DNA from: a virus
Lineage: Duplodnaviria; Heunggongvirae; Uroviricota; Caudoviricetes
Direction: 5' to 3' (one strand)
Length of the DNA: 24,991 nt
IMG/VR virus record: IMGVR_UViG_2706794664_000002
Below, piece after piece: positions 20,991 through 24,951 of this stretch. Position numbers and translations under genes: made by a program. The first letter of the stretch is position 1. The number at the start of each line of letters is the position of its first letter. Below the pieces are notes generated by a model, which worked only from the letters and a program-made list of their open reading frames with translations, ran no database searches and was not told the origin of the DNA.

Positions 20991-23110
<2,120 letters not shown>

Positions 23111-23136
<26 letters not shown>

Positions 23137-23656
23137 TCAGCAACCCCGGTATCAGTTCATCCAGCGCGGCTGCTTTGTTCATGGCTTTGATGATATCCCG
23201 TTTCAGGAAATCAACATGTCGGTTTTCCAGTTCCGGAAAACGCCGCTGCACCGACAGGGGGATCCCGTCGAGAATACTGGCAATTTCACCTGCGATCCGC
23301 GACAGCACGAAAGTACAGAATGCGGTTTCCACCACTTCAGCGGAGTCTCTGGCATTTTTCAGCTCCTGTGCGTCGGCCTGCGCACGCGTAAGTCGATGGC
23401 GTTCGTACTCAATAGTCCCTGGCTGGAGATCTGTCTCGCTGGCCTGCCGCAGTTCTTCAACTTCCCGGCGCAGCTTTTCGTTCTCAATTTCAGCATCCCT
23501 TTCGGCATACCATCTTATAACGGCGGCAGAGTCATAAAGCACCTCATTACCCTTGCCACCGCCTCGCAGAACGGGCATTCCCTGTTCCTGCCAGTTCTGA
23601 ATGGTACGGATACTCGCACCGAAAATGTCAGCCAGCTGCTTTTTGTTGACTTCCAT
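23111..23656 (-). CDS. nu1: Terminase small subunit Nu1
   Basis: 181-aa ORF MEVNKKQLADIFGASIRTIQNWQEQGMPVLRGGGKGNEVLYDSAAVIRWYAERDAEIENEKLRRE... (winged-helix DNA-binding N-terminus). Confidence 0.93.
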
Positions 23657-23669
23657 TGTTCATTCCACG

Positions 23670-23880
23670 GACAAAAACAGAGAAAGGAAACGACAGAGGC
23701 CAAAAAGCCCGTTTTCAGCACCTGTCGTTTCCTTTCTTTTCAGGGGGTGTTTTAAATAAAAACATTAGGTTACGGCGAAGAAGAACGGAAACGCCTTAAA
23801 CCGGAAAATTGTCATAAATAGCGAAAACCCGCGCGCCTTCCGCCCCGTAACCTGTCGGATCGCCGGAAAGGACCCGCAAA
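23670..23880 (-). promoter_or_regulatory. cos DNA packaging site (cosB next to nu1, cosN nicking region about 23834-23845, cosQ-side right-end sequence to about 23880)
   Basis: In lambda orientation the sequence reads ...TTCCGGCGATCCGACAGGTTACG / GGGCGGAAGGCG / CGCGGGTTTTCGCTATTTATGACAATTTTCCGGTTTAAGGCGTTTCCGTTCTTCTTCG..., i.e. the lambda right end joined to the lambda left end, apart from the central 6 nt of cosN and a few SNPs. Confidence 0.75.
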
Positions 23881-23881
23881 A

Positions 23882-23896
23882 TGATAATAATTATCA
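23882..23896. promoter_or_regulatory. Perfect 7-1-7 palindrome TGATAAT-A-ATTATCA (Fur-box-like)
   Basis: Exact inverted repeat at 23882-23896 matching the 7-1-7 Fur-box core consensus TGATAATnATTATCA; about 150 bp upstream of the plus-strand DUF3950 gene and just outside cos. Confidence 0.3.
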
Positions 23897-24044
23897 TCTA
23901 CATGTCACAACGTGCATCTACGCCATCAAACCACGTCAAATAATCAATTATGACGCAGGTATCGTATTAATTGATCTGCATCAACTTAACGTAAAAACAA
24001 CTTCAGACAATACAAATCAGCGACACTGAATACAGGGCAACCTC

Positions 24045-24278
24045 ATGTCAACGAAGAACAGAACCCGCAGAACAACAACCCGCAACATCCGCTTTCCTAA
24101 CCAAATGATTGAACAAATTAACATCGCTCTTGTTCAAAAAGGGTCCGGGAATTTCTCAGCCTGGGTCATTGAAGCCTGCCGCCGGAGACTGTGCTCAGAA
24201 AAAAGAGTTTCGCCTGAAGCAAACAAAGAAAAGAGTGACATTACTGAATTGCTCAGAAAACAGGTTAGACCAGATTGA
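24045..24278 (+). CDS. Small DUF3950-type (YnfO/YlcI-like) prophage protein, function unknown
   Basis: 77-aa ORF MSTKNRTRRTTTRNIRFPNQMIEQINIALVQKGSGNFSAWVIEACRRRL... on the strand opposite the late genes; resembles the cos-proximal small proteins of E. coli cryptic prophages (recalled, not searched). Confidence 0.6.
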   Translation: MSTKNRTRRTTTRNIRFPNQMIEQINIALVQKGSGNFSAWVIEACRRRLCSEKRVSPEANKEKSDITELLRKQVRPD

Positions 24279-24320
24279 AGCAATTTAGATAATCGTGCAG
24301 ACTACGCCCCCTCATATCAC

Positions 24321-24746
24321 ATGGAAGGTACTACAATGGCTCAGGTTGCCATTTTTAAACAAATATTCGATAAAGTGCGAAATAATTTAAACTATCACTG
24401 GTTTTATTCTGAACTAAAACGTCACAATGTCTCACATTACATTTACTATTTAGCCACAGAGAATATTCATCTTGTTCTTGAAAACGATAATACGGTTTTA
24501 ATAAAAGGACAGGGTAAGGTTGTAAATGTAAGATTTTCAAAAAATAAATGCCTTATAGAAGCCACCTTAAAAGGATTCAAATCAGGAGAGTTATCATTTT
24601 ACGAATACAGGAAAAATCTTGCTACAGCAGGGGTTTTCAGATGGATTACAAATATCCACGAAAACAAAAGGTATTACTATACCTTTGATAATTCATTACT
24701 CTTTACTGAGAACATACAGAACACTACACAAATATTTCCGCACTAA
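24321..24746 (+). CDS. DUF1398-type (YdfO/YbcV-like) prophage protein, function unknown
   Basis: 141-aa ORF; core ...[58 protein letters not shown]...[28 protein letters not shown]... True start may be the second Met (24336). Confidence 0.6.
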
Positions 24747-24747
24747 A

Positions 24748-24951
24748 TCATAACGTCCGGTTTCTTCCGTGCCAGAACCGGACTCGCTGGCATGATGAAA
24801 TATGTGTACCCGGTAACCCCGGTGTGCATCGTTTTTGATTATTCCCGCACACTCGCGCAGAAGGAGTTCCCCGTCGGGCTACGGTCTCTGTTAATACGGG
24901 AATACGGCGACGATTGGATTTGCCCCTATATTTCCAGACATCTGTTATCAC
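24748..24951 (-). CDS. Hypothetical small basic protein (67 aa); may be non-coding
   Basis: Only an ORF on the track (MITDVWKYRGKSNRRRIPVLTETVARRG...); no recognisable domain and no strong Shine-Dalgarno identified. Confidence 0.15.
   Translation of the reverse strand: MITDVWKYRGKSNRRRIPVLTETVARRGTPSARVCGNNQKRCTPGLPGTHISSCQRVRFWHGRNRTL

Follow-up and report, generated by a model that had tools for sequence, protein, structure and literature searches.

A perfect Fur-box palindrome beside cos in a lambda-like prophage, matching the catalogued nohB and nohA sites of Escherichia coli K-12, is probably a genuine Fur operator

The stretch of DNA analysed here (the window, 24,991 nucleotides) carries a lambda-like prophage in reverse orientation, in which the small terminase subunit gene Nu1 is followed by cosB, cosN and cosQ and then, after six bases, by a palindrome. 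Two accessory genes, of the DUF3950 (YlcI/YnfO) and DUF1398 families, lie beyond the palindrome on the opposite strand (Table 1). The cosQ heptamer, GGGTCCT, corresponds to positions 48473-48479 of lambda. The 12-nt cohesive end of the window, GGGCGGAAGGCG, differs from that of lambda, GGGCGGCGACCT, at five positions (bp 7, 8, 9, 10 and 12), and the lambda sequence is kept in DLP12, Qin, the Stx1a phage and the CFT073 prophage; the bp 7-12 half of the cohesive end is said to vary freely among lambda-like phages (PMC4669245). A run of undetermined bases (about 21640-21920) breaks the gene for the large terminase subunit, and the translations of its reading frames hold about 90 to 120 X residues; this run is probably masked or unsequenced DNA, not biology.

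Table 1. Features at the cos-proximal end of the prophage
Feature	Position	Strand	Remark
Nu1 (small terminase subunit), NohA/NohD homologue	23111..23656	-	K-12 Fur sites are named after this homologue
cosN cohesive-end sequence, 5'-GGGCGGAAGGCG on the minus strand	23834..23845	-	
cosQ, GGGTCCT on the minus strand (AGGACCC on the plus strand), lambda packaging-termination subsite	23869..23875	-	placed by alignment to the lambda right end
Best match to the 19-bp E. coli Fur box consensus (CAAAATGATAATAATTATC, 16/19)	23877..23895	+	
8-1-8 palindrome, ATGATAAT-A-ATTATCAT	23881..23897	.	7-1-7 core at 23882-23896; identical to the DLP12 'nohB' Fur site
Sigma-70 promoter-like site: -35 GTGACA (23908-23903), 16-nt spacer, -10 TATCAT (23886-23881)	23881..23908	-	prediction
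Accessory cassette, 863 bp (DUF3950 + DUF1398), cos-proximal edge abutting the Fur box	23897..24759	+	absent from Stx1_8100
DUF3950 / YlcI-YnfO family gene, 77 aa, divergent from Nu1	24045..24278	+	
DUF1398 gene (YbcV/YdfO-like)	24321..24746	+	

The arrangement on the accessory side has a counterpart in lambda, where the complement of 48109-48303 encodes a 64-aa homologue of the DUF3950 product. This reading frame is intact and nearly identical to that of the window over the first ~50 residues; it was left unannotated between lambdap79 and cos in NC_001416, and newer lambda records annotate a hypothetical protein there. Between the palindrome and the DUF3950 start codon we also found a second inverted repeat, with 13-nt arms ATCAATTATGACG (23943-23955) and CGTATTAATTGAT (23963-23975) that are 85% complementary and enclose a 7-nt loop. 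It is conserved in lambda, DLP12 and Qin and might belong to the promoter or operator of the DUF3950 gene.

Direct reading and a pattern search both returned TGATAATAATTATCA at 23882-23896 as an exact 7-1-7 inverted repeat, TGATAAT-A-ATTATCA, in line with the initial annotation, and its arms extend further to 8-1-8. The pattern TGATAATNATTATCA matches the window at this site only, even when two mismatches are allowed, with 0.02 matches expected from shuffled sequences. Compared to the 19-bp E. coli Fur consensus, GATAATGATAATCATTATC, 16 of the 19 positions at 23877-23895 agree, a score reached in 0 of 100 shuffles. At the sequence level a Fur operator is recognized by the 19-bp consensus or by TGATAAT-N-ATTATCA, and the palindrome is a sequence of this kind; the likeness to a Fur-box core that had been pointed out earlier amounts to a match of the highest class. 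The gap between cosQ and the palindrome is 6 bp, and the DUF3950 reading frame begins 149 bp beyond it, which bears out the described placement between cos and the accessory genes, about 150 bp from the first start codon. An equivalent site had been suspected in the right end of lambda, and it is indeed present: lambda 48452-48466 reads TGATAATGATTATCA in window orientation, a perfect 7-1-7 repeat that differs from the window at the central base only.

The region around the box is common in E. coli. A 301-bp query found matches in 4024 of 5426 complete genomes, a frequency that is largely explained by its being part of the cryptic prophages DLP12 and Qin. The DLP12 copy of MG1655 (580594-580608, between ylcI and nohD) is base-for-base equal to the window site, and when ~45 bp on each side are included, a single position differs. 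The Qin copy, located between nohA and ynfO, is base-for-base equal to the lambda site, its core departing from that of the window at the central base only. The coordinate that Chen et al., 2007 (PMC2189734) give for the 'nohB' Fur site in the old genome numbering, 579824, presumably marks the centre of the palindrome, assuming an offset of ~780 bp.

Both K-12 copies have a record as Fur sites. In the genome-wide prediction of Chen et al., 2007 (PMC2189734), 'nohB' scored 25.3 bits and ranked as the third strongest Fur cluster in the K-12 genome, and 'nohA' scored 22.3 bits. The same paper cites a plasmid-based Fur titration assay for 'nohB' (Stojiljkovic et al., 1994) and the recovery of a 'nohA' fragment by in vivo Fur selection (Vassinova and Kozyrev, 2000), and describes a gel shift of the 'nohA' oligonucleotide with 150 nM Fur. 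A ChIP-seq summit was placed at 1634625 (nohA) by Myers et al., 2013 (PMC3688515); this anti-FNR peak sits on the Qin copy, and the authors of that FNR study class the locus as 'repressed by Fur'. As to FNR, such a site needs TTGAT-N4-ATCAA, and the palindrome reads ATGAT-N7-ATCAT; we rejected this candidate on account of the wrong half-site spacing. The description of the palindrome as an undescribed element thus does not hold, as the same sequences have been published as the K-12 'nohB' (DLP12) and 'nohA' (Qin) Fur sites and have stood in lists of the E. coli Fur regulon for ~30 years. Two aspects seem to have gone unremarked in the literature that we searched, namely that 'nohA' and 'nohB' represent a lambda-type right end, with the box 6 bp from cosQ, and that lambda itself carries a perfect copy.

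To relate the box to transcription, we considered the promoter-like sequences in its vicinity. The minus-strand site listed in Table 1 agrees with the sigma-70 consensus at 10 of 12 positions in a consensus scan, and in a position-weight scan based on hexamer frequencies of the classical promoter compilations it scored 10.45, among the top 4 of ~50,000 window positions. The Fur box overlies the -10 element and the spacer of this predicted promoter, which is aimed through cosQ and cosN toward Nu1, a direction that fits the published site names, which derive from nohA and nohB. A strong site of this kind exists in the window/DLP12 allele only; in the lambda/Qin allele, the hexamers read GTGATA (-35) and TATCAC (-10), and the score falls to about 5 (5.2). 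Toward the DUF3950 gene, the best candidates scored only 5.9, and their -35 elements lie on or beside cosQ. The promoter-like site is lost in lambda and Qin, where the box persists, so that no promoter open to repression by the box is conserved as well as the box itself, and a box that outlasts its promoter leaves room for binding with little or no consequence.

We consider it likely, with a probability of roughly 0.7, that the palindrome is a genuine high-affinity Fur operator, identical with the catalogued 'nohB'/'nohA' sites, which in the window allele would repress cos-ward transcription. Fur binding at the box is well supported, although the published data on its occupancy in vivo are at odds, and it is the consequence of binding that we infer. 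According to this model, iron-loaded Fur dimers would bind the 7-1-7 repeat within the 19-bp box and, in the window allele, would mask the -10 element and spacer of the promoter-like site that scores highest in the intergenic region. When iron is plentiful, Fur should hold transcription toward Nu1 and the terminase genes off, and it might also act on a weak divergent promoter toward the DUF3950 gene. Iron-responsive control of the DUF3950 and DUF1398 genes, as envisaged in the initial annotation, may occur, but these genes are not the best-supported target, given the weak promoter signals on their side, the retention of the box without them in an Stx1a phage (see below) and the lack of ylcI and ynfO derepression in K-12.

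Gao et al., 2023 (PMC10164565) reported a Fur ChIP-exo peak in CFT073 under iron-replete conditions (P53, 1424699-1424711). In the CFT073 sequence, a degenerate version of the box, TGATAATTATTCTCG (1424694-1424708), lies under this peak, 5 bp from the cosQ of a prophage whose small terminase differs. Upon deletion of fur in this strain, the genes upstream rose by 2.95 and 2.33 log2 units and the terminase operon by 1.34 to 2.13 log2 units (PMC10164565), although this derepression could instead reflect a general induction of the prophage in the fur mutant. Upstream of the cos-adjacent box, CFT073 also encodes (1423654-1423980) a small 'TonB family protein', WP_000830178, an annotation related to iron uptake. 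The K-12 strains present a different picture. The MG1655 ChIP-exo list contains a Fur peak at neither the DLP12 nor the Qin site, and a gene-name search of the W3110 ChIP-exo tables likewise returned a peak at neither of them (PMC10164565). Multi-mapping reads are an unconvincing cause for the absent peaks, since ~10 positions in 80 bp set the DLP12 copy apart from the Qin copy. In MG1655, nohD and ybcW show hardly any expression and do not respond to the loss of fur, and in W3110 the deletion causes ylcI, ynfO, ydfO and ybcV to decrease, not increase (PMC10164565). The W3110 changes are sizeable (log2 values of -3.7 for ybcV, -5.3 for ybcW, -5.1 for ynfO, -2.0 for ydfO and -4.1 for appY; PMC10164565) and concern many DLP12 and Qin genes. 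Such a drop runs counter to repression by Fur, has no parallel in MG1655 and may represent a strain-specific or indirect effect.

We further asked with which of its neighbours the box is inherited, using two IMG/VR samples of lambda-type cos loci, one anchored on Nu1 (n = 66) and one on the cosQ-cosN core (n = 87). Every locus with a DUF3950 gene had the box at one mismatch or fewer (54/54 in the Nu1-anchored sample and 74/74 in the core-anchored sample), and in the latter sample these loci cover three similarity classes of Nu1. Among loci without DUF3950, a box of this quality was found in 1/12 (Nu1-anchored) and 1/13 (core-anchored, a perfect copy), a degraded box with two or three mismatches in 3/12 and 7/13, and no box in 8/12 and 5/13, respectively. 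This co-occurrence is not independent evidence for a functional link, because the intergenic region behaves as one inherited block: among 38 distinct relatives, the whole region is almost invariant and the box is no more conserved than the rest, so that no selection specific to the box can be read from it. More informative is the Stx1a phage Stx1_8100, whose homology to the window spans Nu1 through cos, ends exactly at 23896 and restarts at 24760 after only 14 unrelated nucleotides. The phage has kept the box beside cos without the accessory genes, with one mismatch and still 16/19 agreement with the consensus. The gap in homology identifies the DUF3950 and DUF1398 genes (863 bp) as a cassette placed beside the box. 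As far as these alignments tell, the box belongs with the cos-proximal DNA and not with the cassette, and some loci devoid of the cassette have the box, or a recognisable remnant of it, adjoining cos. By the same comparison, a mosaic junction coincides with the distal edge of the box in one lineage at the least, and the CFT073 prophage, whose similarity to the window also tapers off shortly beyond the box, may be a second.

Several other explanations have to be weighed against an operator that represses cos-ward transcription. Fur might bind without any regulatory consequence, the box being either a chance match to the consensus that was inherited with the cos-proximal DNA or a relic operator whose promoter has decayed. 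The K-12 data would suit this explanation, with no ChIP-exo peak, no derepression in MG1655 and a change of opposite sign in W3110, as would the persistence of the box in the lambda/Qin allele after loss of the promoter, its conservation at the level of the surrounding intergenic region and the existence of lambda-type phages that lack it. However, a perfect 7-1-7 repeat is very unlikely to arise by chance, both natural alleles have perfect arms and differ at the central, non-contacted base, and the CFT073 site is occupied in vivo and its neighbours derepressed in the fur mutant. We therefore regard binding without consequence as unlikely, while taking it seriously. Considerably less probable is that the palindrome serves as the operator of the DUF3950 (YlcI/YnfO) protein, acting as a small DNA-binding autoregulator with a ribbon-helix-helix-like sequence pattern. 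The complete co-occurrence of box and gene, the rarity of a good box where the gene is missing and a predicted secondary structure with a basic N-terminus followed by two or three helices speak for this idea, but the co-occurrence is explicable by linkage in one conserved block, box and start codon are 149 bp apart, and no palindrome of this kind occurs in the 200 bp upstream of the DUF3950 gene of a Stx2 phage, where the adjacent terminase is a different one. Neither do the protein data point to a DNA-binding fold: Pfam, at a permissive threshold, and NCBIfam yielded only DUF3950 / YlcI_YnfO, a PDB sequence search found no relative, and the single-sequence AlphaFold model was of low confidence (pLDDT 54.7), too poor for a fold search.

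The initial annotation had also raised the possibility that the palindrome is part of the cosQ-side packaging signal. It might, for example, assist terminase or a host factor as an accessory site when packaging ends. A mere 6 bp separate the box from cosQ, lambda itself has it, and a Fur footprint of the usual extent should stretch as far as cosQ. These points are outweighed by the natural variation among relatives. The box is not present in all phages that share cosQ, cosN and terminase, as 8/66 (Nu1-anchored) and 5/87 (core-anchored) loci with an identical cosQ-cosN core carry unrelated sequence at its position, and its spacing is not fixed relative to cosQ and cosN, varying between 6 and 7 bp from cosQ. 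Because the loci without a box share cosQ and cosN, and nearly all of them have a Nu1 that is at least 95% identical, the box does not appear to be needed for packaging. The literature moreover defines cosQ as a 7-bp element, describes its conservation and names cosQ, cosN and cosB as the required subsites (PMC4669245). A packaging role is accordingly very unlikely, the faintest of the explanations considered here. A related and speculative idea, to which we assign little weight, is that Fur at the box links the iron status of the host to events at cos, either by occluding cosQ and thereby modulating termination or by gating a Q-independent transcript that passes through cos into the terminase genes of a prophage. 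In the literature that we searched, no paper connects Fur with cosQ or Nu1. Against these alternatives, a Fur operator directed at cos-ward transcription is the explanation that we favour.

The site is of some general interest, as it is among the best consensus Fur boxes of the species and occurs in ~4000 of 5426 complete E. coli genomes. A decision between a cos-ward transcript, the YlcI/YnfO gene and no target at all would bring order to the Fur regulon, and would reveal if the packaging end of lambdoid prophages is a place where iron is sensed.

The closest comparison is with the K-12 'nohB' and 'nohA' sites, which, like the window site, lie between a Nu1 homologue and a YlcI/YnfO gene at an equal distance to cosQ; the prophages around them, however, are defective, their morphogenesis genes being truncated. 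In the published K-12 work the sites take their name from the Nu1 homologue, and cos, cosQ, lambda itself and the divergent YlcI/YnfO gene go undiscussed. The cosQ element of lambda-type cos sites is the immediate neighbour of the box, 6 bp away and co-inherited with it in most relatives; cosQ, however, is invariant and needed for packaging termination, whereas natural phages that share this cosQ can do without the box. Classical Fur operators at sigma-70 promoters, such as those of fhuA, fepA-fes, entC and ryhB, share with the window the 19-bp box with its 7-1-7 dimer site and, as the window allele does with its predicted promoter, have the box over the -10 element and spacer. Most iron-uptake operators consist of clusters of several overlapping boxes. 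Unlike at classical operators, the genes flanking the window site have no known link to iron, and chromosomal occupancy and derepression are not seen for the K-12 copies in the ChIP-exo and fur-deletion data. Finally, the stx1 promoter of Stx1 phages is iron-repressed and Fur-regulated and is carried by a lambdoid prophage, so that a transcript encoded by the phage responds to iron. In contrast to the window site, stx1 has its own promoter and box beside the toxin genes, far from cos, and its iron regulation is demonstrated; like the window site, it places an operator for the Fur protein of the host on a lambdoid phage.
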